Part shown: piece by piece, positions 45,256 through 64,000 of the stretch | Position numbering within the stretch: position 1 is the stretch's first letter | How the letters are laid out: each line of letters begins with the position of its first letter | NCBI RefSeq assembly: GCF_016433145.1 | Contig: NC_058133.1 | Span: 284,364,202 to 284,428,201, forward strand | Source: Gracilinanus agilis | Taxonomy: Eukaryota | Direction: 5' to 3' | Length of the DNA stretch: 64,000 bases | Translations under genes and position numbers: made by a program | The notes under the pieces: model-generated | Seen by the model: the letters and a program-made list of their open reading frames with translations, nothing else | Databases searched by the model: none | Told to the model about the DNA's origin: nothing

Positions 45256-46344
45256 TGTTATCAAAAAATGGGCAAATTTAGTGAAAAAAGAGGGATAAAG
45301 GTGATGAGGTGATAGGAGGAGGAATGAAAGGGATAGCTGAGTGTAGGGAAGGGATGAATGAGGTGGCATATTGGATGGCAAGGGAATGAAAGGGAGTATA
45401 CAGGAGGGTAGCTTGAAAAGGCTTAACACTGAGGCTAGAGACAGAGGATACTGGGGGAGATAGGCTGAACCCTTCAAGGTGAGGAAAGGTATCTCTATAG
45501 GTACAAAGGAGTTGGGTCAATCATAAATTATTTAAATCTGCCTTGAGGGCTTCTCTTGTTAGTTTCTAAAGTCCCTTTCAGAGAGGAGTCAAGAGGACTC
45601 CTCCCTGCCAGTGAAACTGATGGCAGGAGGAAGTCTCAGGTAAGGACTTCCTGCCAAGATGGATGCCCACAGTTCCCTCAAGAAATAAAAGAAAATAATT
45701 CCTTCCCTCTTTAGCCCTTGCCTTAATCTTAGACACAATGATTCACCAGAGGGTTTGAGTAGGGGATTATTAATGTCAGGAATAATCAGAAGGAGAGAGG
45801 GGTTTTGGGTTTTCTAATAGCCACTAGAGAGAAAGCTGAAGGTGGGGGAAGAGTCACAGGAGAGAGTTAGACTGAGAGAGCCTACTCTTCAGTCAGGAAG
45901 ATTTGACTGTCTTAAAGTAAAGTATTTACTAGATCGATAAAATAAGGGATAGCTTGATTTAAGGATGTCCTACTTGCCTACAGAAAACTAAACCCACAAT
46001 GTCTAATCACCAAAACCACCCTTCCTCCCAGAGCCCAAAGGGAAATTCAGGGAAGATAACAGGGGTATAATATGGAGAGGTCAGGGAGAGGTCCAGAGAA
46101 ATCAGCTAGGTTCAAATTGCCAGAGACAAAAGCACAGGCCAAGGCCAAAGCTAAAACCAAAAGCAGAGCCTCAGTTGGAACTTCCGCTCTCTTCAAGCCT
46201 CAGGTTCCAACTGCCTTTTTGTGAACATTCTAAGACTTCTAACTGCCAGGATGTTTACAATTGACTCTTGCGAGAGCAAAAGCCTCTGTTGCATCTTTGC
46301 ATTACAGTCTGCTCATTTGTCTTTTGAAAATTTGCACCTTGCAA
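45256..46344 (-). mobile_element. LTR of about 1.09 kb, probable 3' LTR of the minus-strand ERV
   Basis: TG...CA termini (tgttatc / tgcaaca). Pyrimidine-rich U5-like end on the minus strand and minus-strand AGTAAA at about 45930. No TSD and only a weak PPT, so orientation and linkage to the ERV are inferred. Confidence 0.55.
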
Positions 46345-47997
46345 CATTTTCTGGTTGCTAAGATCTAAAGGATTACTACTCTTATTCTAAGCTAAACTAT
46401 AACTATGCTTTTATCCCTAAGTTTTTCAAAATAATAAAAAGGGTTGTTATCTCTTAAAGTATGCTAAGACTAATCATAAGCTAAAACTAAGATGGGTTAT
46501 AGTAAAGGCATAGGAAAGGAATGTGGATTTAAGTTTTGCAAAAATTTTTGAACAGAAAGGAAAAGCAGATTAAATGAAAACATTCACATACAGTCTTAAA
46601 GCTTAACATTTGCTAACTAAAACAAAGTAATAAATTCTATCTATGTACTTATCTAATTTCATGAACTAACAACAAAAGTATCAACTAAGAAAATTTCTGC
46701 AATCTAAATTTCTAAATTCCAATTCACCTTCTAAAGTTAGTATATGAACATGTTAGTACACTTATGTCTATGTTAGAAACGTTAGTAAGAAAAGATAAGA
46801 CTAAAATTATTTGTAAGACTTTTGTTTAAACTATAGACTTAAGCTACGTATAATATTTACAAAGAAAGTTTAGAAAACTCTGTCCCTGTTCTAACTTATC
46901 AAACTAACTAACTGTCCCTGTGTGTTAGTAAAACTTATTGCTAAGGGTTAGTAAGCAAAATTTACATATTTACATTTTTACAAGAAATGTCAGGTGATTT
47001 GAGTAGAAGATTTCTGAACCAAAGTGGAAAATTCTAAGCTAAGGCAGATAAACTTCTCTCTTAGGTGTAAGTTTGTGTTTCACATGTAGATGTGAAGTTG
47101 GAAAAATGTTCTATGTGTTGTCTAGTATGACCTATCCATGTAATGGAGTGTTACATACTTACTCCTCTGGAATTCTTCTGCAAAGTGTATGTACTGCATG
47201 GATAAAATCTAAAGTGTTGGATGCAGTGAGAATTCTGTTGGGTGTAAGTTATGTTTTTCAAATGCATGGGTCCAACGCTGCTCCAATGATCCTCTTCACA
47301 GTGTGGTTGTTGTCCTTTACATTGATTGTGTATTCAGTCACGGATGTCTTTTGTAGTCTTCAGGTTTGCTGTCCTTGTGATGATCTGTGAAGTCAGCAAT
47401 GCCTCACTTGTGTTGTTTGATGTTATCCCTTACTTGTCAACTTGCACTGGAACTGATGTTCTGGTTTGTTGACTTGTGTCATTTGATGTACCCGTGTTTG
47501 TCATGTTGCACTGGAACTGATGTTCTGGTATGTTGACTTGTGTCAGGAACAAAGTTCAAATGTCCATGAAACATGATTAATCTTTTCTTCTTTCTTTTTT
47601 CTTTGTGGTTTAATAAAGATGATTACAGGTAGCAAGATTTCATGATAAAATCTTTTGTGCTTTCATTTATTTGTCGATGTCAGTGTCTAGGTCTTGGATT
47701 GATTGCAAATCAAATGTGTCTTCTTCTGCTGTTGATTCTTTTTCATTGTCATAATGGTTTATGGATGATTCTTTTAAGTTGTAATTGGGTTTGGGATAAT
47801 CATTTGGGTATAAAATTTGGTGTAATATGTGATTGTTCACTGGTTCTTGGTCTAATTGTGGTTCTGATTCATGCTCTCATTGTTGTTCTAATTGCTGCTC
47901 TGGTTCTATGGTCTCATGTATAGGCTGTGGACTTATTTGACTGATTGGTTGGTGCTAATTGATCATTGTGCTGTATAATATCTGGGCCTTGTGGTCA

Positions 47998-50900
47998 TTA
48001 TTGGGACATGTCTTTTGCTGGCTTGACATGAGTGACATGGAACCAAGGATCCCTCCCTTTAACTTTTATTGCACTAGGAGTTGTTAAAATTATCCGAGAT
48101 GGGCCATGCCACTTGGGTTCTAACACAGACTTCCTACTGAAGTTTCTGATGTAAACATAATCTCCAGGTTGGAAGTTGTGCAGAAATCAAAGGGTACTCT
48201 TTGATTTATCAAACCTATTTTTTGAAGTTGATTTAAGTGTTTGCTTGAGTAATTTAATGTACTCATAGAGTTTGCATTCCATTCCCAGGTGTGATAATTT
48301 GTGAATGCTTTGAGGTGACTTGCCATGGAAAGGTGGATGGCTATACAGCATTTCAAATGGTGATAAGTATGTAATGCTGTTGGGTTGGCATCTGAAGTGG
48401 AATAGTGCCAATGGTAAAGCATCAGGCCATTTCATATGAGATTCTGCACAGATTTTGGCTACTAGAGTCTTCAAAGATCAATTCACTCGTTAAAACTATC
48501 CACTGGATTGTGGTCTGTATATTGAGTGAAGCTGTTGTTTGATTCTTAAGGCCTCATAAACTATAACTAAACTCTTATTAGTGAAATGGGACCCAGAATC
48601 TGAAGCAATATGTAAAGGAACAGAGAATCTGGGTATTAATTCTCTCAGTAAGACTTTCACAACAAACGCTGAAGTGTTACATTTGGCTGGGAAAGTTCCT
48701 GGCCCTTAGTTAATCTATCCACTATCACTAATGCATATCTGTAACTTTGACTCCTTGGCATAGTGATATAATTGATTTGTAAGTATTCGAATGGTGTATA
48801 GGCTAGTGGTTTGCCTCCCAGACTGTGGACTTTTGTAATTGTCTGGTTGAATTGCATACAAATTCTGCACCTCTGTGAAACTCTCATAGCAACTTCATAT
48901 ATGCCCCTTGCATTCCAATACCTAGTTATGGAATCTGCCATGCCCATAATACAGGGATTTAGGCAACATAGGTTTTCCATTTGTCCCCAGCCAAACTCCT
49001 TTAGCTAAGTATGCACCTTGATGTTTCTTCCAATTCTTCACTTCCTTTGGGGAGAAAGCATTTTTGAGATCATCTTCTTCCACCAAAGATAAGTTTAGAA
49101 TTGTATTTGGTCCATACTTCACTGCGAATTTGGCTGTGATATCTGCATGTTTGTTCCCTGATTCCAATGGCTCTTGAATCTTAGTGTGAGTCTTGCAGTG
49201 AATGACTGACACTTGGGCTAGTAATTGGATTGTGTCCAACAACTGATTAATTAAATTCCCATACAGTATCTGTTTGGCATTTGATGTAATGAAGCCTCGA
49301 TTTTTCCAGAGTTCACCAGAATGATGCACAACTCCAAAAGCATAACGAGAATTGGTAAAAATGTTCATTTTGCAATTTTCGGCAAGCTTCAGAGTGTGTA
49401 TCAATCCGACCAATTCTGCCCTTTGAGCACTCATGGTGGATGGTAATGATGAACACCAAAGGGTTTCGGAGGCTGTCACTATGGCTGCTCTGGTATATCT
49501 CTGATTGTCTACTATTATATGATGATCCATCTGTGAATTTTGTCAAATCAGGGTTTTCTATGGGCTTATCGTATAAATCTGCCCTTGTTTTATGCACGAT
49601 GTTAAGCGTGTCTTCACAGATGTGTAGACTTTGTCCCTCCAGAGGTAAATCTGGGATCAGAATCACAGGATTTAAGCTTATGCACCAGTGAAAAGTTGTT
49701 TTCATTAGCCAACAAGATTGCTTGGTATTGTGATATTCTTTGGGAGGTGAACGTTTGTAGTGTGGTGTTTCTTAAAGTAGATTCCACTTGGTCTGGGGAA
49801 AATACTTTCATAGGAAGATGCTTTTCTAATCATGATGGCTACAGCAGCAATAGCTCTTAAACAGCTTGGCATTCCACAGATTACTGAATCTAATTTCAAG
49901 CTATAATAGGCGACTGGTCTTAGGGTATTCCCTGATTGTGTGAGAACACTAGAGGCTATCCCTTTATCCTCGTGGATGTAAAGGAGGAATGGTTCATCAT
50001 GATCAGGGATACCTAGGGCTGGTGCTGATAGAGTGAGTGATTTTAATTTCTCTATAGCATGGATATGGTCTTTTGATAGTTTTAATGGTTCTGGAACTTC
50101 CTTCATGCTTAGCTCTATCAGAGGTTTAGAGATAAGAGCATAACCTGGAATCCAGTTTCTACAGAAGCTCGTTACTCCTATAATTCCCCTGAGCTTCCTC
50201 TTGGTCTTAGGCAAGCTTAAACAAGTATATCTTGTGTTCTCTTTTGGGAAATCTTTCTGGAGCCTTATTCTAGGATGAATCCTAAATTATTTACCTCTTT
50301 CATCACAAATTGAAGTTTGGTTTTGGAAATTTTATGACCCCTTTTGCCTACCTTTTTAATTGAGTGTACACTATCTGTATAACAGACTTCAGAAGACGAT
50401 GACATTAGCAGAATGTCATCAACATAATGTACCATTTTGCTGTCTTGGAAAGTGATCGACTCAAGGTCTTTCTAGAATTTGACAGAAGACCAAAGCTGAA
50501 TCTGAAAAACCCTGGGGCAAACGGGTCCATTGGATGGATTTGCCTTCCAATGTGAAAGTGAACAGCTTCTGGCTGTCTCTGTGCAGAGGAACAGAGAGGT
50601 ATGCAGAGCTCAGGTCCAGAACAGTAAACCAAGCAGCTTCTGGTGGTATTGCTGCTATGATTCGTGATGGACTTGGTACCACAGCATAGGTCTTTTGCAC
50701 ATTGTTGTTGATTGCTCTGAGATCTTGTACTAAGCACCATTGAGTCTTCCCATCAGGAGATAATTTGGCTTTCTTTACAGGCATGATTGGGGTGTTATAT
50801 TGTGAGAAGCCATATTTTAATATACCCTGCTTTAATAAACTCTCTATGATGGGTTTCACTCCCTCAATCACTTCTTGGCTAAGTCTGAACTGAGGAATTC

Positions 50901-51440
50901 TTGGAGGTAAACCTTCTTTTACCTCTATTTTTATTGGTTCTGCTGATAAAATGCTGCCCACGTCATTAGAATTTTTAGCCCACACGTAATCAGGAATATT
51001 GTTAGGAACCTCATAGATGTTGTCATTTGATTGGTAAGTTGGTTCCTCACTACATGGGTCTAAAAATAAATTGGGATGGTATTTCAGAGATCTCTTGGGT
51101 AGGTGGAGATAGATTTGTCCATCCGGTTGACATTGGATGGTGGCAGCCAATTTACACAGGAGATCTTGCCCCACGAGGTTCGAAGGACACGATGGCATCA
51201 ATAAAAAGGTGTGTTCGAGAGTTAGAAGGCCAAATTTTACCATTTTAACTTTTAGCTTCGGGACTTGTTGGGCTATCCCAGAATCTCCTCTCGCTCTCAA
51301 ACTACCCTGATATTGGCATCCTTTGGGTGCGTCACATAAAACAGAACATGTTGCACCAGTGTCCAATAATCCTTCATAGTGTACCCCCCCCCAATTTCTA
51401 AGGTAACTAGTTATTCTCCACTGTCATTGGACTTCACTGG
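47998..51440 (-). pseudogene. pol: ERV pro-pol, class I (epsilon-like), fragmented by frameshifts and stops
   Basis: Protease LLDTGATCSVL (about 51366). RT QDLRAIN, TRLPQGF and YVDD (50415-50426). RNase H FTDGSS and IHCKTH...GNKHAD. Integrase CRIC, PFEYLQINYITMP, WPDALPLAL and C-terminal WHGP...WFHVTHVK, with TAA at 47998-48000. Confidence 0.96.
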
Positions 51441-51532
51441 CACTAGGGGTAATAAAGAATCCTCAGTTTTGTGTGTGCACTTATTATTGATCCAGTATCA
51501 CATATGGTCATTTGTATCTAAACCAGAACTTC

Positions 51533-52870
51533 CTATAGTACCATCAGGCAAGTCAAGTTTAGAATCAGAAGAACAATAGAAGGCAGGCTTAGAGAGTTTT
51601 CTCTCTCTCTCTCATTAAGAGCTGGAGAGTCATTATCAGTTGTGCAAACTTCATGTTGGTTTTTGCTAAGGGCTGCAGAAATGGAGGTTTGGTCTGATTC
51701 ACTATCCACTCTGTTATCTAAAGAACCGTCAAAACCCAAATAAGAAGTTTTCCCATTGGTTGTATCTGGGAATGTATGGTAGTTAGTTTGTGTTCCCTTC
51801 AACACCTCTGGTACGACTGCTGACACATGAGCTGACTGAAGTTCCCTACTTTGCCCTGAAGTTTGTGTGGCTGAAGTCAGATGGTTTTTGTCTTCAATCA
51901 CTGAACAAACTTCATTGATGTTACTAAGCACACTGGTTACTGGGGATGACAACTGCTCCCTTTCCCTTCCCCAAGCTTCTGGTTGGAATTCTTCAGCTAA
52001 GGGGTTGAGAAAGGTGGGTTTAGAATTTCCTAAGCAGCTGTCAGCACCCTGCAACTCAGTGGGTTGCACTTTTAAAGTTAAGTCTTTGCCAACATACTGA
52101 TTTGGTTGCTCTCTATCCTCTTTCTGTGACATTGTGTCTGAAGCAAGTGAATGGGATTTGACTTTGGGATCTAACTCCCCCAAGGTTACTAAATGCATTC
52201 TTTTCTGAATACATTGTAAATCCTTGCCATAATGTTCTTTATCCAAGCTGCCCAGTTGTTTTAGACTTGGAATAAAGAGAGGAGTTTGAGGCTTTGATGA
52301 CTTTGAACAAGATTGCAAAGATTCATGATGCAAGCTGTTGCAAATGCTTGTATGATCCTTATGCTTCTCATCCAATGTTTTTGTGATGGAATGAGAAAGC
52401 GGACTCCTTATGTAGTCATCTTCACTATTGCCATATATTTCTCTGCGCATTTGCATTATGTCCTCCCATTGTTGATTATCTGCCACAGACATATTTTTAT
52501 ATTCTGTGCAGCTTGCTTGAGACATCTGTTCTGTTTTGCCCAGTTTTTCAATTTTATTTTCCCCACTCAGACTATATATCCTCACACCCAAATTATAATT
52601 ATTAGACCTTTTTAAATTAGGAATCTTGATTCATAACGACTTTGGCTTCGTTCCCATCTGTATGTATCTTTCCATTTCTTTTAGGGATGGAGATTGACTA
52701 AATTTCTTGCATGAATGGCTACAGCAAGGACCATCATGCTTGCTTTCCTCACTTCTCTTTGTATCATTATTGTTTTTGGACCATTTTGTGTTATAATAGG
52801 TCCATCTTGTACCTCTGTCTCTTTGGCTATAATTGTCATTTTTGATAAAGTCAATTTGTTGTCGAAATTT
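51533..52870 (-). CDS. Long post-nucleocapsid reading frame of the ERV (445 codons, one internal TGA at 52631-52633), unknown function, contains a PAM2 motif
   Basis: ORFs 52631..52915 and 51533..52591 are in the same frame, separated by TGA plus 13 sense codons. S/Q/E/T-rich and probably disordered. Confidence 0.7.
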
Positions 52871-54417
52871 ACAAAATTTGAGATATGACCTGGACATCCA
52901 CAAAGAAAACACCAAGTGGAAAATTATTTTGGTCTTTGGGTGTTAATTGTAGGTTGCCTGTATTGATTATGGCTCTTCTAGTTTGAAGGGCAAAATTTTT
53001 TACCTCTTCTAATTTTTTTATCGTTTTATTTGTTTCAACTGTTTTTTCAAATCTGCTATCAGTTCGTCCTTGTCTGAGTCTGTCTGTCTTGCTACCCTTG
53101 CTTCTTTCTGCTTTGAATCATGGATTTATGAAGCATGCTTTCTTACATCCTCCGGTGGCAGTGATTCCCACTGTGGACAGTTTTCCCTAAAATAATTTTG
53201 GATTGGTATTGATGTTCCTTTTACAAATTGCCTATGGATGTGATCTATGGTTTCCTGGGCATGTGTATCACGTAATCCTAGGATTGTTTCTGCTGCCTCT
53301 AATACTCTATCCAGGAAACTACTAGGATGTTCCTCTTCTCCCTGTTTTAATTTTTCAGATTTTGCCATGAATTTGGCCTTTTTGCATGGATCCTCATTGC
53401 TTCTAATAAATCAGTTCTACATTGGATAAGGTACATAAGTTTGGCATATTGAGTAAAATCTATGTCCTGGTGGACTAATGGCCAGGCTGCTAAATTTGGG
53501 TTTGTCCTCATTTCATTTAGGAATTTTTCCTTTTCTGAGGAAGTGTAAAATTCCTCTAAAAGAAATTCCACATCATCGAAACTGGGATTGAATAGTGTGA
53601 ATACCTTTTTTAATTCTTTAATGCTTTTCAATGATTTCTCAAAAAATTTTGGAAAATGTCTCTTTAGCACCTCCATGTCACTTGGGGTGAAAGCTTTGTA
53701 TGTTTTTACATGCACTACTCCTTCACCAGGCTGTACGATTGTTCTCTCTATGATTGGTAAAAGTGAAACTATGGGGAGCAGCTGGGTAGCTCAGTGAAGT
53801 GAGAGTCAGGTCTAGAGACAGGAGGTCCTAGGTTCAAACCTGGCCTCAGCCACTTCCCAGCTGTGTGACCCTGGGCATGTCACTTGACCCCCATTTCCCA
53901 CCCTTACCATTCTTCCACCTATGAGACAATACACCAAAGTACAAGGGTTTAAAAAAAATCTAAAAAAAAAAAGTGAAACTATGGCATTTGCGGATGGTTG
54001 GTTGTTATTGGCCTTTGATGCGTTAGTGGTGGTATTATTCTCTGGGTATTTGGACTCCACGATCTCTAGCTGGAGAATTGTGTGCTTCTCCAGTTCCTTT
54101 CCTTTCCTTATTTGTTTCAATACTTGGAATAGTAGTTTGATGTTATCTACTAGTTCCCCAGAATGAGCATCTTTCTTTGTTGTTGTAATCGAATTGAAAT
54201 ATTGCCACAGGTGAGAGAAAACATTTTTCGAGACCATTAGATATTGCCAGATTGTTAGGATTATGGCTATGGCAGTTGGGATGAAGCAAATACATTTGGC
54301 CTGGGTCAGAGCACACCATTTATAATAATCATAGATATCCAGAACTTGTCGCACGAAATTAGGGACCCTTATAAAACAAAAATCAATAACACCTTGCATA
54401 AGAGACCATAAAATCAT
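52871..54417 (-). pseudogene. gag: ERV gag (hydrophobic N-terminus, capsid, MHR, CCHC knuckle), interrupted by a SINE and frameshifts
   Basis: ATG at 54417. Capsid YKAFTPSDM...FNPSFDDVEFLLEEF, MHR QGEEEHPSSFLDRV, knuckle CFLCGCPGHI-x-KFC at 52911-52871 with a 1-nt deletion. Confidence 0.9.
53775..53968 (+). mobile_element. Young SINE1_Mdo-like SINE inserted in ERV gag
   Basis: 16-bp TSD aaaagtgaaactatgg at 53759-53774 and 53969-53984. Confidence 0.95.
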
Positions 54418-55392
54418 TGAGATGCTAGATAGGATGAATGTTATCCTAGCTAACTTTTAAAGACCCTTCTTTGCATCACTTCCTGTGCCTTCTCCCCACT
54501 TTACAGGGACCAATTACAGTTTTAGAAGTTTGTTAGGACTGCCCAGGGGGCATCAGTCATTTCTGAGTTGTCACCCACATTAGCATGTGGGTTGAGGACC
54601 ACCCCACACTTAGGAGTTAAGTAGGTAGTATACACTTCTGGTGATTAAATTTAAAAGTAAGTGAGGGGAGAGTTAATCCCATCTTCACAGTCATGATAAA
54701 AAATAGTTTACTCATCATATTACAAGAGGTTGTCAAAGAAAACTGCCCTGATATTCTTGGACAGAAGAGTAAAACAAAAATTTTAAGAATCCACAGATCA
54801 CCTTTTGCAATAAATACCCAATGGCAATTACCAGGAATGTTATAGCCAAAGTAAAGAGCTCCCAGGCCAACGAGAAAATACTGTAAGCAGCCAGAAATAA
54901 ATAATTCAAATATCATGGAGCACAAGTCAAGATTACACAGGATCTGGCAACTTCTACATTGAAGGATTGGAAGGCATGGAATATGATATATATGATATTC
55001 TGTAAAGCAAAGAAACTGGGTTTATAATCAAAAATCACCTACCCATCAAATCTGACTATATTCTTTCAGGAGAAAGTATGGTCATTTAGGTTTCCAAGCA
55101 TTCCTGAAGAAAAGAATACACAGATGGTAATCATAGCTATGAATGTAAATGCAATTAGCTCACCAATAAAATGAAATGAATAGCAGAGTTAAAAAGCAGA
55201 ATTCTGCTATATGTTGTTTACAAGAAACACATTTGAGGCAGGTAAACATGTAGAATAAGGGGAAGGGGATTATGCAGAATCTATTGGGCTTCCACTGAGA
55301 TAAAAAAAGCAAGAATAGCAATCATGATCTTGGACAAAGCTAAAGCAAAAATAGATCTGATAAAAAAGAGATAAGGAAGGTAATTACATCTT

Positions 55393-55588
55393 TTTTTTTT
55401 AATTGTTTTTTTTAAACCCTTAACTTCTGTGTATTGACTTATAGGTGGAAGAGTGGTAAGGGTAGGCAATGGGGGTCAAGTGACTTGCCCAGGGTCACAC
55501 AGCTGGGAAGTGTCTGAGGCCGGATTTGAACCTAGGACCTCCCGTCTCTAGGCCTGGCTCTCAATCCACTGACCTACCCAGCTGCCCC
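55393..55588 (-). mobile_element. SINE1_Mdo-like SINE in the L1 endonuclease region
   Basis: 14-bp TSD ggtaattacatctt at 55379-55392 and 55589-55602. Confidence 0.95.
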
Positions 55589-56273
55589 GGTAATTACATC
55601 TTGATAAAAAATAATATAGACAATGAAGTAATACCAGTACTTCACTGATATACACCAAATGGTATAGCATTCACATTTTTAAAAGAGAAACTAAAGGAGC
55701 TTAAGGAGAAAATAGACAGTAAAACTATACTAAAGTGGGGGACCTCAACTTTCCCCTATCAGAATTAGAGAAATCTAACAAAAAAACAAGAAAGAAGTAA
55801 AGGAAATGAATGAAATTTTAGAAAAGTTAGATTTAATAGCTATCTGGAGAAACTGAACAGAGATTAAAAAGGAATATACCTTCTTTCAGCAGTACATGAT
55901 ACATATACAAAAACCAGTCATAAACTAGGGCATAAAAACTTCACAACCAGTTGTAGAAAAGAAGAAATAATAAATGCAACTTTTCCAGATTATAATACAA
56001 TAAAAATATAATCAATAATGGTTTATGTAATGACAAATTAAAAATTAGTGGGAAACTAAATAATTTAATTCTTCCAAACAGGTGGGTCAAAGAACAAATC
56101 ATAGAAACAAACATAGATTCCATTTTAACAATGAGGAGACAACATTTCAAAATTTATGACATATAGCCAAAGCAATATTCGGGGCAAAATTTATATCTTT
56201 GAATGCTTATATCTAGAGAAAAAGAAGATCAATGAATTGAGTATGAAACTTAAAAAAAAAGTAGAAAAAGAAC

Positions 56274-57037
56274 TGTTGTGAGGAAGATTATTTAGTTATT
56301 ATGTAGGAGACTTAGCAGGAAGGGCTGGAGAATTCCACATGGAATGGGGAAGCAGGAAGTGGTTTGCTCTCTCTCTGAGAAGGACTCCATGGTGGTTGGG
56401 ACAAGCTGTCACTGACCCTGGGAGACCTCAGAGGTAGTGGAGTTGTACCCTGATTCCTTGGGATCTTGGAGTGTGGTGAAGGTTGGAAGCAGAGGACATC
56501 AATCCTGCATGACAGCACTGAGTAGGGGAGTGACCTGTGGTCTGGTGGACAGCTTGCAGACTTCCTCTTCCTACTGGGCTACTTTGAATCATCAGTTCTG
56601 GAAGAGTTGGTTCCTGGCATCCTGAAAACATCTCTGGACTCTGCAGTGAGGGTTCCCACTCCAGGCCTGTTATTCTCTGGGCCCTGCGTGGCTTAGGCCA
56701 TGTTTAGTGTAGATAAGTCCCTTACCTCTCCCTATGATTTGCCCTTACTTTGAAAGTGTAGAAACCCTTATTCCCATCCTTTACTGTTGTTTCCCTCAAT
56801 TAAACTGTTATAAACTTTTGCCTTTTGCCTGCTGGTTCCATAGGCCCTTGCCTAGGTGGGGCTGAGTCACTGTTATGGCCTAACTGCCATTTCTTTCAAC
56901 AGTCACCTCCTTAGCAGTTAAAACCCAGTCTCCCTATCTTGTTTGGTCCTGCCTTCAGACATTCCTGTCACCCTCACACCCCATTGTGAACCCACATTTA
57001 ATATTCAAGTCTACTTCCCTGGTTTTCCCCCATTATA
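56274..57037 (+). mobile_element. Solo LTR (764 bp) inserted in L1 ORF2
   Basis: Starts TGTTGTG and ends cattata (CA mutated to TA). 4-bp TSD GAAC at 56270-56273 and 57038-57041. ATTAAA at about 56798. L1 sequence resumes seamlessly. Confidence 0.85.
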
Positions 57038-59254
57038 GAACAAGTTAAAAATCCTCAATTGAAGACTAAATAGGAAATCCTAAAAAAAAATAATTAATTA
57101 ATAAAATTGAAACTAAAAGAGCTGTTGTACTAGTAATTAAGAGTAGGATTTGGTTCTGTGAGAAAAAAGAGAATCAAATAACCTGTAACAAAAATGAAAA
57201 AAGTGAATTCACCTCCAATGAAGAGAGAATTAAAGTAATGATTAGGAACTATTTTGCCCAATTATATGCCAATAAATCTGACAATCTAGGAGAAATGGAT
57301 GAATATTTTTAAAAATATAAATTACCTAGATTAATAAAAGAGGAAGTAAAACACTTAAATAATCTCATCTCAGAAAAAGAAATTAAACAAGCCATCAATA
57401 AACTCCCCAAGAAAAACTCCCCATAGCCAGATGGACTCAAAAATGAATTTTATAAAACATTTAGTGAACGATTAATCCAAATACTATTTAAACTATTTGG
57501 CAAAATAAGCAAAGAAAGAGCCCTATCAAATTCTTTTCATGACACAAATATGGTGCTGATGCCTAAGGCAGGAAGACCCAAAACAAAGAAAATTACAGAC
57601 CAATTTCCTTAACGAATATTGATGCAAAAATCTTAAATAAAATACTAGCAGAGACTACAATAATAATCACATGGATTATTCACTATGACCAGGTGGGATT
57701 TATACCAGGAATGCAAGACTGGTTTAATATTAGGAAAACTATCAGCATAATTGATCATATCAATAATGAGACTAACAGAAATCACATTATTATTTCAATA
57801 AATGCAAAAAAAGCCTTTGACAATATACAACACCCATTCCCATTAAAAAAAACTAGAAAGCAAAGAAATAAAAAGGCCTTTTCCTAAAATAATAAGTACT
57901 ATCTATCTAAAGCAATCAGAAATTATAACCTATATGGGGATAAGTTAGAAGCCTCCCCAAAAAAATCAGAAGTGAGACAAGGATGCCCATTATTACCACC
58001 ATTATTTAATATTGTACTAGAAATGCTACTTTTACCAATAAAAGAAGAAAAAGAAATTGAAGGAGTTAAAGTAAACAGTGAGGAAACTAAAGTATCACAT
58101 TTATGGATGATAATGTTGGCAAACCTAGAGAATCTTAGAGAATCAACTAAAGAATTAGTTGAAATAATGAATAACTTTAGCAAAGTTGCAAGATATAAAA
58201 TAAATCCAAACAAATAATCAGCATTTCCATATATATTCAACAAAGTCCAGCAGCAAAAGTTAGAAAGAGAAATTTCATTTGAAATCTCTGTAGACAATAT
58301 AAAACTCTTGGGAATCTATTTGCCAAGACAAACAGGAATTATATGAACACAATTACAAAACACGTTACACACAAATAAAGTTAGATCTACACAATTTAAA
58401 AAACATTAATTGCTCATAGTTAGGCAGAATTCTTATAATAAAAATGACAATTCTACTTAAATTAATTTACTTATTAAGTGCCATATGAATCAAACTACCA
58501 AAAAACTATTTTATAGAACTGGAAAAAATAAGAAAATTCATCTGGAAGAACAAAAGATCAAAAATGTCAATGGAACTAATGAAAAAAATTGTGAAGGATG
58601 TTGGCCTAGCAATACCAGATCTTAAACTATAAAGTGCTAATCATTAGAACAATATAATATTGTCTAAGAAATAGAAAAAATGGATCAATGGAATAGATTA
58701 GGAGTAAGTGACCTCAGCAATCTAGTGTCCTGTTATGGGGTAAAATAGTTCAGAGTTAGTGAAGATCAGCAGTATTAGAGTATGGCATCTTTTTAGTCCA
58801 AATGATAAAACAACTTGGAAGAAAAAGATGGTCCTGGCCTCGATGAGGATCCTCTTAATGTGATAATATTGTTTCAAGCAATATTTAAGGGTTTTAATCC
58901 AAACTGGGGAGATGTCATGGATCTTTTTAATACTCTTCTCATTCCAGTAGAAAAGACTACAGTTATTGAGCCTACTAAAAGATTAATGAGAGCAGGACTA
59001 CCAAAATGGCAACATACTCACAGAATTGGCCAACTCAAGATCCTCAATGAACCCTAATGACCCAACAGAGTATGCTACACTCATTCAAGGAAGAAAGACT
59101 TTTATTAGGGGGATGGAAGTTAGGCCTGACAATTTTAGTGGATTTCAGATTACTCAAGAGGAAAAAGAAACCTCTTATCAGTGTTATGATCATCCTTGTA
59201 AAGAAGCTAAAAGGTTTGCAGGTTTAGATCTAATTAATTCTAGAAATGCTAGAA

Positions 59255-59466
59255 GGCAGCTGGGTGGCTCAGTGGATTAAGAGCCTAAACCTAGAGATGA
59301 GAGGTCCTGGGTTCAAATCTGGCATCAGATACTTCATAGCTGTGTGATCCTGGGCAAGGCACTTAACTCCCATTGCATAGCCCTTACCATTCTACTGCCT
59401 TAGAACCAATACACAGTATTAATTCTAAGATGGAAGGTAAGGGTTTAGATTTTTTTTAATTAAAAA
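59255..59466 (+). mobile_element. Older SINE1-type SINE inserted in the second ERV gag
   Basis: TSD aaatgctagaa at 59244-59254 and 59467-59477. Confidence 0.9.
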
Positions 59467-60104
59467 AAATGCTAGAATCTCGAATTCATCCTTTTTTAAC
59501 CAATCTGCCCCTGAAATCAGATATTTCCATAATAATTACCCAGGGTGGCATAAAAAAATGAAAGTGAGCTTGAGACCAAAACATTATACATATTTGAAAG
59601 AGAAAAGAAAAAAGAAGATAAAAAAGAAAGGGAATCAGAGTCAAAGAATATCATTGTACTCACTTCAGAATATAGGTCCAAGACAGATAGAGGCAAACCT
59701 CTTACCTGTTTCTACCATAGTAAAACAGGGCACCTTTTTAAAGAATGCAGAAAGAGGCAGAGGGAAAGTCTCACAACAATGAATTTCCAGGAACAGGGCA
59801 GATCAGTTTTCAAAGACAATATGAATGCAGACTTAAGGAATGAGGTAAATTTTATAGAGAAAACACTTCATAAAGGTGTTGGGAGGAGGGTAAAAGCATT
59901 ACTGGAAGATGATGAGTTTGTATTTACAAATTCTAACATTTTTATTACCTCTGAAATACTTGTCACCACCTCCTCTTGCACTATGGAATCCTATGTCTCC
60001 GTTAAGATTAATTATTCTGTTTGTGATTGTCTAATTAATACTGGTGTTCTAACTACTTTGCCAGGATCTTCAAAGTATACTGGTACTCAATCAACCACAT
60101 AGTG

Positions 60105-60311
60105 CAGGGGTTGGCAACATATGGCTCTCGAGCCATATCTGGCTCTTTTGAGGGCCAAATATGGCTCTTTCTGCAGGAGCCATAAAGTCAATTTTTTTTC
60201 AGGCACTGTTACAGGAGCTCGCACTGTGAGCACTGTATGGCTCTCACGAAATTACATTTTAAAAAATGTGGCATTTATGGCTCTCACGGCCAAAAAGGTT
60301 GCCGACCCCTG
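60105..60311. mobile_element. hAT MITE (207 bp) inserted in the second ERV protease
   Basis: TIRs CAGGGGTTGGCAAC / GTTGCCGACCCCTG. Perfect 8-bp TSD acatagtg (60097-60104, 60312-60319). Confidence 0.95.
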
Positions 60312-62236
60312 ACATAGTGGATGCATTATCTCTGATTCGTGTTACAGTATGCTTACTGTAGATCATTCATTTTTGTTTATGTCTAATGGACCAATTAATA
60401 TTTTAGGAAGATGTTTACTATGTAAATTAAGAGTCACAATTACTCGTGCTGTTGATGAATCATTGTCTTTATATATGCCTGAAGAATCCCTTTCTTGTTT
60501 CCTATAGTATTGGACATTTGTCATTTCACAGAAGAAGTGCCCCTTACTGAGTCCTCCACTATATGTACACTTTTAGGTTCCCATCCAATTCTATCTATAA
60601 TACTAGAATCTTTATAGGCCACTTCTTCCACTGATGTATTGTTAAAATCTCTGACCTGTGACCATAAAAGTGAAGGGTGGGTCCCCTCCTTTTAAACAAC
60701 AATAACCTTTGTCCAAGGAAACTATTAAGGGAATAGAACCAATTATTAATTTACTTATTGACAAGAGAATCTTAATAAAGTGTCTGTCACTCTGTAATTC
60801 TCCTATACTCCCTGTAAAGAAATCTAAATCAGGTCCAAATGGAAAACTAGTTTATCTGTTCAGGATCTCAGAATTATTAATTCTTATATAATACAAGATA
60901 CCCCATTGTACCTAATTTATCCACCTTTGTCTTCACTATTCCTTGTTATGCCAAATGTTTTATTGTTATTGATTTATGCTCAACTTACCATATTATTCCT
61001 ATTTATGAATCTGTAAGTTACCTAAAGCATTCACCTGGAAAGGGATTAAATACACCTGGACAAGATTACCTAAATGATATGTAGAAAGCCCAACTCTGTT
61101 CTCACACACTTTGCAGCAGGATTTAACTTCAATTTCTCTTGAAGTGTCTCCTTTGATACAGAATTTTAATGACTTATTATTACCCTCTTTGAGATGATGA
61201 TATTTGTGGAAGGGATAGTTGTCCTCTTTTAGTGCAATTAATTGAAAGAGGACATAAAGTTTGAAAGCCTAAAGTTCAACGGTTTTCTTTTATAAGAAGG
61301 TTCCTACATGATTTCATCTACATGTGTCTAGATCATACAGAAAATAGAGACTCCAAAGATAAGGAAGCAGCTCCATGCAATATTTGTGATAATTAGATAG
61401 TCAAGACAGTGGGTACCGAGTTATGGTGAGCTCACAAAACCTTTGATAGCCTTAACTAAGAACTTTATTTTAGAACCATTGTGTTTGCAACCTGAACACT
61501 TAACAGCTTTCAAAACTAAAGAAATCTACTATTGGCCCCAGCCCTTGGGCCAAAAGGCCTTTTTTCCCCTCTTTCTTCATGATCAAAAGAATGTGACTTC
61601 CAGGGTGCTTTCTCAGTTTTTTTGGCCTTCTCTTCATCTGATAGTCTACTTTCTGGACAGCTGGACCCTGTGGCTTCATGGGTACCTCCATGTCTCCAGG
61701 GGGAACCTCATGTCTCCAGGGCCACTGCAGCAGCTGCATTGCAAGTAGACAAGTCATGTAATCTGGTATTAGGGTCTCCACTCACTGTATTGTGCCCTGA
61801 TGAAGTAGAGGCTCTGTTGCTAAGACAGTATACTTGGTTTTTTTTAGATCAGAGGCTTGCTAAATACCAGAAAATCTTATTAAGCAAAGAGACTATAACA
61901 ATCAAGAGATGCTACTTTCTTAATCCAGCTACACTACTTCCAAATCTGCCTCTGTCTGATAAGACATCTCTTATACACAATTGTAATATTCTTGTAGATA
62001 TGGCTGAAAATGGAAGAAAAGATCTTATAAATGTCCCTTTTACAGAACCAGATTTGATTCTTTTTTACTGATGGTTCCTCTTTCATGAAAGAGGGAATTA
62101 GCTATATGGAAACTGCTGTGATTTCAGATACTGATCTTATCTGGTTAGCATCCCTTCCTTCGAACCTCAGTGCTCAAGAGGCTGAATTCATTTCCTTGAC
62201 GCATGGATGCCACATTGTTGAAAGTAAGGCAGCTAG

Positions 62237-63060
62237 ATGAAGAGGTCAAGTCCCTTCAAAAATCCTGTGTGGATTCTAATCACTGATGAGGGAAGCCAAA
62301 GCCTGGGAAAACAATTGGGGAACAGGTTTAAGATTGAGGATGGAGACGTATAGATAAAATAAGAGACAAGAGACACAGAGAAAGATGAAGTGTGGTGTCA
62401 GGGAGACAAGTCTGAGAGAGAGAGAGCTTATTTCTGACTGATTTGTCTTTCATATAATTGGGGGTTTCAGGGTGTCCTCTAAACAAAGGAAATGCCAGAA
62501 GTTTTTATATAATATTACAAGTCCAATTACAAAGATAATGAAACAGGTGGTAAAACCATAGTTCATTCAGGTGGCAAGGAAGGTTATTTGAAAGTCCTTC
62601 CTGACTTAAGTTAAACCTTCCTCTTCCCAGAAGCCTGGTCAAAACTTATTCAGATTGTAAAGGTAAGCCTTAGAGATTCTAAAAGACCTTTTTCATCCTG
62701 TCTGCCAGCTTCAACTTCATTTCTTTGAAAGAAAACAATTTCTAAGCCTGACAAATTTTTACCCAATCCAATAGAAAGATTCAGTATTCATCAACCATGT
62801 GAAATATTAGAAATACATCCAGATAAGTCTGATCCATGAATACCTTGCTTATTGGCATCAGCTTTTGAATACATCTTTATTACCTTCATGATTTGTCATT
62901 ACTGAAACTCTTCACTAACATATACAAGATTCTTTCAATGCTTTTAGAGTTTGTCTTGCTACAGGTATATCATGGCTATAATGAAGTTTTCTTACATCAA
63001 CAGGAAAGTTTGTAATGAACTCTGATCTTTTATGATATCTTTGGGAGGTTATTAAACTCT
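62237..63060 (-). mobile_element. LTR-type insertion replacing part of the second ERV RNase H
   Basis: The RNase H frame stops after CHIVESKAA and resumes at ALALIHRAVYTG. The insert is partly similar to 44270-44490. Orientation tentative. Confidence 0.55.
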
Positions 63061-64000
63061 CCAGGGCACTGGCACTCATCCATCGTGCTGTGTATACAGG
63101 AGAAACAGATCCAATATATTTAGGAAACAGCAGAGCTGACAGAGCAGCAAAGGAAGAGGTTGTTGTTAATGGACCAATTTATCTCTTTTCATTAACACTT
63201 TTTTTTATCAGGGTGAATAGTTCCATCATCCTCTCCAAGAACAACTCTCCTATGCATAATGACAAAGAAGTTGAGTACTGGAAAACTTGGTTTAATGCAA
63301 AACAGGTAGCTGGAGTATGAATTACAGATCCTGGTAAGCCACTCCTTCCTAGGAATTTTTATCACCAGATTTGTCAGTATATCAATTAAAAAGGGGCATT
63401 TTGGCTCTTGGGGAATGGTGGACACAATCAAACCAGTGTGGTTTGCCCCTGGCATCTCCTTTTTACTGGCACAAATATTTGCAGCTAAACAATCATGCCA
63501 GTCTTATAACATTTTAAGAAGACTTTTTGTGGGTATCTACCTCCAAATAGATTACATTAACATGCCTAAATCTAACCAATATAAACATTATCTTCTCATT
63601 GTTGATTAGCTTACCAAGTAGGTAGAAACTTTTCTGAGCTCTAGAGCTACTTCAGACTTTGTTATTAAAATTCTTAAATAAATTGTTCCAATATTTGATA
63701 TACTCACACTCATTGATCCTGATAGAAGATCTCATTTTATTGATGCTATGCTGTGCTAATGAGTCAATTCCTATCTAGGTGGTAAGTCTTGTTATCACAT
63801 CCCATATCACCCCTAAGACTTCTGGTCAAGATGAAAGAATAAATAGAGAACTTAAAACTATAATTGGAAAACTGTATACTGAGACTTATTTAATGTGGCC
63901 AGTAATATTCTTTTTCTCTTATTCTTTTTTTGTTTACATATAAAACCTGGAGTGAATAACTCCTCTCACTTTATGAAATACTCTTGTTTAATCTCTCTCT

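Follow-up and report, generated by a model that had tools for sequence, protein, structure and literature searches.

According to excerpts of PMC4798954, class I endogenous retroviruses (ERVs) produce Pro-Pol by suppression of the in-frame stop codon of gag. An excerpt of PMC13517186 reports UGA junctions for SSSV, ZFERV and RMEV, two of which have the context UGA-A, and describes the readthrough signals of epsilon-related retroviruses as lacking experimental verification. In MoMLV and WDSV, the same excerpt indicates, the stop is situated within a few residues of the boundary between nucleocapsid and protease, whereas in the family described here approximately 420 codons separate it from the catalytic aspartate of the protease. 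The layout appears to be a variant of the class I readthrough arrangement, to which the only well-known addition, judging from the available part of PMC1224870, is the betaretroviral dUTPase. As in the dUTPase case, extra coding sequence is located at the 5′ end of pro and would be made only with a Pro-containing precursor; in contrast, the dUTPase is a folded enzyme reached through frameshifting, while the sequence described here lies in the frame of gag and has neither a Pfam domain nor a recognisable fold. The best overall reading, with a probability of roughly 0.55, is that an env-less class I ERV family expresses, through UGA readthrough, a disordered and motif-bearing leader that possibly recruits PABPC, the poly(A)-binding protein of the cytoplasm.

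The element was found in a stretch of 64,000 nucleotides of the Gracilinanus agilis genome (contig NC_058133.1), called the window below, to which all positions refer. It is a decayed ERV on the minus strand, extending from approximately 54456 to 45277, with the following features:

53980 to 54456, minus strand: 5′ part of gag, holding a hydrophobic stretch at about 54238–54294
53774 to 53969, plus strand: SINE within gag (repeat family D1), private to the window copy and a gap in the alignments of other copies
53130 to 53790, minus strand: capsid region, split over two frames (Pfam Gag_p30, E 3.4e-05 and 0.018, both below the curated cut-off)
52871 to 52911, minus strand: single CCHC zinc knuckle, seen in translation, broken by a frameshift in the window copy, with the pattern intact in many other copies
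52634 to 52873, minus strand: Gag tail, 80 codons from the last knuckle Cys (dN/dS 0.17, like the capsid)
52631 to 52633, minus strand: gag stop shared across the family and presumed site of readthrough, TGA with a following A (TGA in 25/27)
51414 to 52630, minus strand: putative N-terminal extension of Pro, about 405 codons, rich in S, L, K, E, T and Q, predicted disordered
52433 to 52477, minus strand: sole predicted helix, extension residues 52–66, with conserved Met codons at 52456 and 52450
51980 to 52015, minus strand: PAM2-like motif TFLNPLAEEFQP (Pfam PF07145, 14.1 bits, cut-off 20)
51773 to 51811, minus strand: conserved block, extension residues 274–286, the top-ranked 12-residue window in two comparisons
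51600 to 51613, minus strand: (GA)7 run, frame break of the window copy, differing in length in 21 of 28 other copies
51498 to 51500, minus strand: TGA, probable recurrent lesion (stop in 8 of 22 distinct sequences)
51411 to 51413, minus strand: TAA private to the window copy (stop in none of 17 others)
51090 to 51410, minus strand: aspartic protease (Pfam RVP, E 3.3e-06), catalytic Asp at 51363–51361
47960 to 51089, minus strand: fragments of reverse transcriptase (RT), of RNase H and of integrase (Pfam RVT_1, RT_RNaseH_2 and RNase_H; translation)
46309 to 47950, minus strand: 3′ region of 1.6 kb without an env-sized frame (longest stop-free stretch 69 codons)
45277 to 46308, minus strand: 3′ LTR (85.7% identical to the LTR located upstream in another copy)

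The domain matches and the layout, on which the assignment rests, point to a class I (gamma/epsilon-like) ERV. Gag, pro and pol share one frame, with a stop between the knuckle and the protease motif, and the nearest named Pol proteins are class I-type sequences from marsupials, turtles and birds (37–49%). Shared with class I readthrough ERVs are a putative Gag_p30-type capsid (the best match in Pfam, with 23.9 bits versus a cut-off of 27.4, on a fragment), one CCHC knuckle, an in-frame stop between the knuckle and DTGA, and the UGA-A context; the differences are that here no structure is detected downstream of the stop and no env frame is found. The 3′ region of 1.5–1.6 kb contains no frame longer than 78 codons in three of three copies, a small sample (69, 78 and 70 codons), and no CX6CC pattern was found in this region of the three copies examined. 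From its sequence, the family looks env-less. The N-terminal stretch of Gag at 54238–54294 (minus strand) is membrane-spanning-like, with a 19-residue hydropathy of 1.96, and of at least 1.6 in all 18 matching copies (24 tested). Env-less IAP elements have an ER-targeting Gag N-terminus, which this stretch may resemble, and the env-less layout together with the hydrophobic start of Gag is consistent with an intracellular cycle.

Tandem repeats with periods of 64 nt and 24/36 nt occupy 47406–47545 and 47840–47917, after the integrase, where env would be. No 5′ LTR matching that of the window copy is left, as judged from the absence of an upstream self-match; with one LTR in the window copy and no full pair in the seven other copies checked, no LTR pair for dating was obtained. 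At its 5′ end, where no 5′ LTR is left, gag borders on plus-strand fragments at 54617–56260 and 57037–58640, which we take to be LINE-1-like. A second, more decayed ERV lies on the plus strand at 58809–63609, with 97 codons from the last knuckle Cys to the protease-motif position, rather than the approximately 105 given in the original prediction.

Translation of the window copy confirms the predicted frame, which extends from the last knuckle Cys and holds a single TGA at 52631–52633. From 52873 to 51536 (minus strand), 80 codons precede this TGA and 365 stop-free codons follow it; the long open stretch had been recognised correctly, but counted as 352 residues. It is indeed longer than any surviving pol fragment, the longest of which measures 320 codons and not 301. 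Near the (GA)7 run the reading passes to a second frame, which continues past the TGA at 51500, the TAA at 51413 and a run of nine G at 51384–51392 (minus strand), the frame break of the protease, into the protease itself. Both runs, the peptides quoted for this part and the two stops (TGA 51500–51498 and TAA 51413–51411) are as had been described. In total, 503 codons separate the last knuckle Cys (52873–52871) from the protease Asp (51363).

Relatives of the element are numerous in its own genome. A DNA search gave 40 scored candidates out of 1000, all matching at 84–100%, and a protein search gave 119 scored candidates out of 1650 with 122 matches, at identities down to 57%; among the candidates scored, the family thus comprises at least 40 DNA matches and at least 122 protein matches. 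In the first 29 other loci the alignment mostly runs from gag into the extension, and often into the protease and RT. To select copies independently of the extension, a search with a capsid fragment was performed, and 20 of its 150 matches were examined, chosen by gag alone. The extension follows the gag tail in 19 of these 20 loci, several of which are truncated, and one locus has no downstream match. Thus the concern voiced in the original prediction, that other copies might lack the region or carry it as a separate insertion, is not borne out. Comparison of the copies indicates that the extension is family-wide and not a private insertion, for which no flanking duplication or separate insertion needs to be assumed. 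The tree built from 66 copies has the shape of a ladder, and its end branches measure about 0.05 (0.045 substitutions per site for the window copy). A third subfamily is 45% identical in the extension and 86% in the protease-RT (PR-RT) region, and lacks approximately 42 extension codons.

The stop at 52633 is a common property of these copies. After removal of three duplicate loci, and with the window copy counted, TGA is present in 25 of 27 distinct sequences. A CpG survives in one, and the opposite-strand deamination product expected of CpG decay is seen in none of the 27, which argues against the earlier suggestion that this TGA is a decayed CGA. Among 45 protein-search loci, 25 close and 20 at about 57–66% identity (seven overlapping with the first set), the junction is TGA in 39 and TAA in one, and was not located in five. 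Of 14 gag-selected loci whose knuckle is intact, 11 reach the TGA after 76–80 codons, and it persists in subfamilies that are only 45–60% identical in the extension. The TGA at 51500, earlier put forward as the candidate true gag stop, is a stop in only eight of 22 distinct sequences. A continuous frame leads from the TGA into the protease in two of 65 natural copies, in which the Asp is residue 420 and residue 375, respectively. The distance from stop to Asp is divisible by three in only 13 of 27 measurable copies, many others being one base off. The distances that are not multiples of three are ascribed to decay at simple repeats.

A sister family in the same genome (loci L095–L114), with approximately 50% identity to the window family in PR-RT and 27–37% in the capsid, shares the knuckle, a similar Gag tail, the UGA-A stop and the protease. 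Five of its nine loci with an intact knuckle (20 examined) show TGA-A 89–90 codons after the knuckle, followed by 54 codons to the Asp; three more loci have the same total length with an earlier stop. The window family, in contrast, has approximately 420 codons from stop to catalytic Asp, i.e. about 365 more than the sister family (about 320 more in the third subfamily), and a PAM2-like pattern, which the sister family lacks. The sister family is close to UniRef entries K7E2C3 and A0A5F8GG34 of Monodelphis domestica, which have 48–49% PR-RT identity to the window element. It is younger, with many near-identical copies and a pro-pol frame open over 1195 codons, and provides a useful natural control. 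Because the TGA at 52633 is common to the copies and the sister family has an equivalent stop, TGA 52633–52631 is assigned as the gag stop and TGA 51500 as a recurrent lesion, both on comparative grounds. Gag therefore would end 80 codons past the knuckle, and the remainder would form an N-terminal extension of Pro-Pol. With the assignment of the stops thus reversed, the stretch is no longer the greatly extended Gag C-terminus that had been proposed, but the 5′ part of pro-pol; that this part stands behind a UGA gag stop is very probable. The expectation that Gag ends a few tens of residues past the knuckle fails locally, also in view of the 89–90 codons of the sister tail.

The selection pattern shifts from gag-like to relaxed exactly at 52633, and the divergence between copies changes as well. 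Four-fold sites differ by 0.36–0.65 in the gag windows (52634–53790) versus 0.07–0.26 in the extension and PR-RT (50480–52630), and mean third-position divergences are 0.42 in gag, 0.19 in the extension and 0.19 in PR-RT, with correlated distances (rho 0.69–0.82). The synonymous divergence of the extension tracks pol and not gag. Our guess is that the jump in gag divergence at the stop reflects repeated exchange of gag by recombination.

The extension is evidently an old coding sequence, as had been foreseen: the frame is stop-poor and integral to the family. At this composition, 343 codons would lack a stop by chance with a probability of about 3e-11; between 51380 and 53150, the two remaining frames of the minus strand contain 52 and 38 stops. 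In DNA-selected copies the extension has 0.67 in-frame stops per 100 codons, versus 6.0 and 10.1 off-frame, 0.42–0.71 in gag and 0.43–0.48 in PR-RT; in protein-selected copies, a set biased toward open frames, the figures are 0.36 for the extension and 0.44 for pol, and in the third subfamily two stops occur in 2577 extension codons. Indels common to copies inside the extension are mostly multiples of three, and drift alone would leave 337 codons free of stops with a probability of only 1e-4 to 3e-3 for each deep branch (0.15–0.25). The amino acid constraint is weak in this sequence, with dN/dS values of 0.6–0.8. Among close copies the extension has a dN/dS of 0.81 (0.64–1.06), which is not lower than in the shifted frames (0.75 and 0.83, a control that covers close copies only), whereas the capsid has 0.14, the gag tail 0.17, and PR and RT 0.31–0.32. 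Across subfamilies the extension has 0.61 (0.51–0.74) and 0.67 (0.51–0.85), versus 0.23 and 0.15 for PR-RT. All intervals are codon bootstraps on non-independent pairs, and the values include post-insertion decay.

Three short blocks, namely the helix (90%), residues 274–286 and TFLNPLAEEFQP, are 83–91% identical to the third subfamily, compared with a mean of 45%. Across the aligned copies, the extension drifts fast and tolerates in-frame deletions, but keeps these blocks. The last of them contains LNPLAEEFQP (52015–51980, minus strand) and fits the PAM2 pattern, L-N-x-x-A-x-E-F-x-P. The likeness to eRF3, Paip1, Paip2 and Ataxin-2 (PF07145) consists of a short motif of the LNPxAxEFxP type in a disordered setting; here the motif scores 14.1 bits, below the Pfam cut-off of 20, is encoded by a retroelement and shows no other likeness to these proteins. 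Its surroundings are predicted disordered and its key positions are conserved: the key columns match in 41–45 of 46 copies, while two spacer columns do so in 23 and 26 of 46. With truncated loci counted, 47 of 65 carry the complete pattern; it is present in nine of nine loci of the third subfamily (45% identical in the extension) and in none of 20 of the sister family. In 200,000 shuffles the strict pattern arose nine times and the loose pattern 212 times, which is to be read with the fact that the motif was picked by eye. The block is not the most conserved window, being fifth in one ranking and behind two blocks in another, and its dN/dS of 0.33 (0.08–1.07) overlaps the 0.75 of the remainder.

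For the motif with the MLLE domain of the host genome, complex prediction gave a score of 0.44 compared with 0.02 for the best control; the runs agree in at least 81% of contacts and the pLDDT of the partner is at least 54. In a benchmark without peptides, 51 of the 78 solved pairs and two of the 108 mismatched pairs attained the mark for this score; at 0.60 or lower it was attained by five of the 78 solved pairs and by all four passing mismatches. Since MLLE-PAM2 is a solved textbook pair, the pass may derive from the solved structures, and the prediction lends weak support to binding. We place the probability that the motif really binds PABPC somewhat below even.

The most serious rival explanation, rather unlikely as a whole, is that the extension is passive filler: sequence gained behind the gag stop would stay open only to let Pol be reached, the protease would remove it, and the likeness to PAM2 would be due to chance. 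In close copies the dN/dS is similar to the values of the shifted frames, which agrees with this explanation, as do the dispensability of approximately 42 codons in one subfamily, the lack of a fold or homologue (see below) and the replication of the sister family with 54 codons. On the other hand, the extension has a dN/dS below 1 across subfamilies, most of its length was kept through a long ladder of subfamilies, the three short blocks stand far above the mean identity, and the key columns of the motif are fixed while two spacer columns vary.

In the preferred reading, that of a disordered leader expressed by readthrough, Gag would terminate at UGA 52633, and a minority of ribosomes would read through in frame, yielding a Gag-Pro-Pol with about 400 extra residues. 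These residues could form a disordered leader between the Gag tail and the protease, acting as a motif scaffold, whose PAM2-like block may bind the MLLE domain of PABPC. PABPC might then be brought to the RNP of the element itself, or eRF3 be competed for it, and the gag-pol mRNA would be helped in readthrough, escape from decay or intracellular packaging. According to an excerpt of PMC5027505, binding of PABP's C-terminal domain to the PAM2 motif of eRF3 promotes termination; therefore a PAM2 motif in the readthrough product could compete for PABPC or tether it to the RNP. The specific version in which PAM2 in Gag-Pol titrates PABPC away from eRF3, raising readthrough at its own UGA-A and shielding the mRNA from nonsense-mediated decay, is unlikely. 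By analogy, the available text of PMC4917968 describes binding of MoMLV RT to eRF1, which increases readthrough. Both cases would share the idea of a readthrough product acting on the termination machinery, with a different putative partner here, the MLLE domain of PABPC, through mimicry of eRF3 or Paip.

RNA signals for readthrough were searched for by folding, in a method without pseudoknots or long-range pairs. No stimulator was seen in the 90 nt after the stop (mean folding z +0.4; 13 of 38 copies), where the original prediction had proposed to look for structure, and none of the ten offsets examined at and downstream of the stop gave a mean z lower than −1.1. A gammaretrovirus-type signal, i.e. 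UAG-G with an H-type pseudoknot, was not found, the context being UGA-A. As no local structure follows the stop, a stimulator would have to be distant, a missed pseudoknot or a protein. Four-fold sites diverge very little (0.07–0.08) over the 112 codons that immediately follow the stop; at about nine columns per window, this was considered as an RNA signal and rejected.

Foamy viruses make Pol from a separate RNA. A comparable arrangement, with a spliced or internally initiated RNA starting at the Mets at 52456 and 52450, would make the extension a Pol leader and the UGA a plain stop. Of 64 copies, 62 and 58, respectively, keep these Met codons, although both lie within the sole predicted helix, which can explain their conservation. 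No structure follows the stop, and codons 1–30 seem unconstrained (dN/dS 0.98). Codons 1–58, upstream of the Mets, are nevertheless as stop-poor as the rest (0.55 stops per 100 versus 0.41–0.50), which is a weak argument, as drift would keep them open with P 0.19–0.33 per deep branch; and the 170 nt that precede the Mets form a purine-rich stretch in which no splice acceptor is apparent. The related copies L018 and L029 have in-frame stops in common at codons 35 and 189 of the extension. Six copies that cluster on the tree are interrupted at codon 35, as a start at the Mets would allow, but two of these also share the stop at codon 189, which lies downstream of the Mets and suggests that defective templates were mobilised in trans. 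A separate pol RNA is decidedly unlikely.

The readthrough leader is predicted to be intrinsically disordered by AlphaFold2 modelling, which, with 14 natural segments (an alignment of 14 rows only), gave a pLDDT of 36.5 and one helix, at residues 52–66. Pfam shows nothing on the 365-codon frame, whereas the flanking frames match Gag_p30 (below cut-off), RVP, RVT_1, RT_RNaseH_2 and RNase_H. A profile of the 14 segments found no homologue among 1.84 billion protein representatives, a word search of longer proteins found no match, and neither did searches of PDB sequences (best E 0.85) and the ESM Atlas; a capsid search for long relatives, weak by its own measure, was empty. No internal repeats and no origin elsewhere in the element were found for the extension. 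Two candidates were discarded. A decayed duplicate of the protease was suggested by one pairwise match (E 0.003), which involves the window copy and the sister protease only; it was reached in 0 of 100 shuffles for the window copy, and fails for 13 other copies or with the family's own protease (7–85 of 100). Divergent copies seemed to have a second zinc knuckle in a different frame, which was an artefact, as the pattern used had accepted stop codons.

The original prediction had also considered a captured accessory domain. A host or viral domain diverged beyond recognition has a precedent in the dUTPase N-terminal of Pro in betaretroviruses (PMC1224870, available part), and PAM2 motifs are typical of host proteins, but since no fold and no homologue were found in the profile, word, PDB, Pfam and Atlas searches (the fold on a 14-row alignment), the extension is not a recognisable captured domain, and no folded accessory domain, dUTPase-Pro or other, is supported by a profile match or a confident fold; this origin is very unlikely. 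That Gag has a long C-terminus which stops at TGA 51500, TGA 52633 having arisen by decay of a sense codon, is extremely improbable, as the stop at 51500 in eight of 22 sequences is outweighed by a TGA at 52633 in 25 of 27 and in all subfamilies without the opposite-strand deamination product, by the equivalent stop of the sister family and by the relaxation of selection exactly at 52633.

No report of a long Pro leader or of a retroviral PAM2 motif was found in the literature searched, including the available parts of PMC11334065 and of bioRxiv 10.1101/2024.07.05.601823; the family may already stand in supplements, subscription papers or Repbase/Dfam. A public marsupial gene model for SASH1 ends in an ERV RT fragment with 58% identity to the RT of the window element; the fragment is either a piece of an ERV that became exonised or an artefact of annotation.

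The presence in one genome of two related UGA-A families, with 54 versus 370–420 codons before the protease Asp, provides a natural comparison. If the motif does bind PABPC, the family would represent retroviral use of a host motif of termination and poly(A) biology, and a route to readthrough without a pseudoknot. If it does not, Gag-Pol would tolerate a disordered insert of 400 residues ahead of the protease, and the annotation of the repeat family would be corrected.
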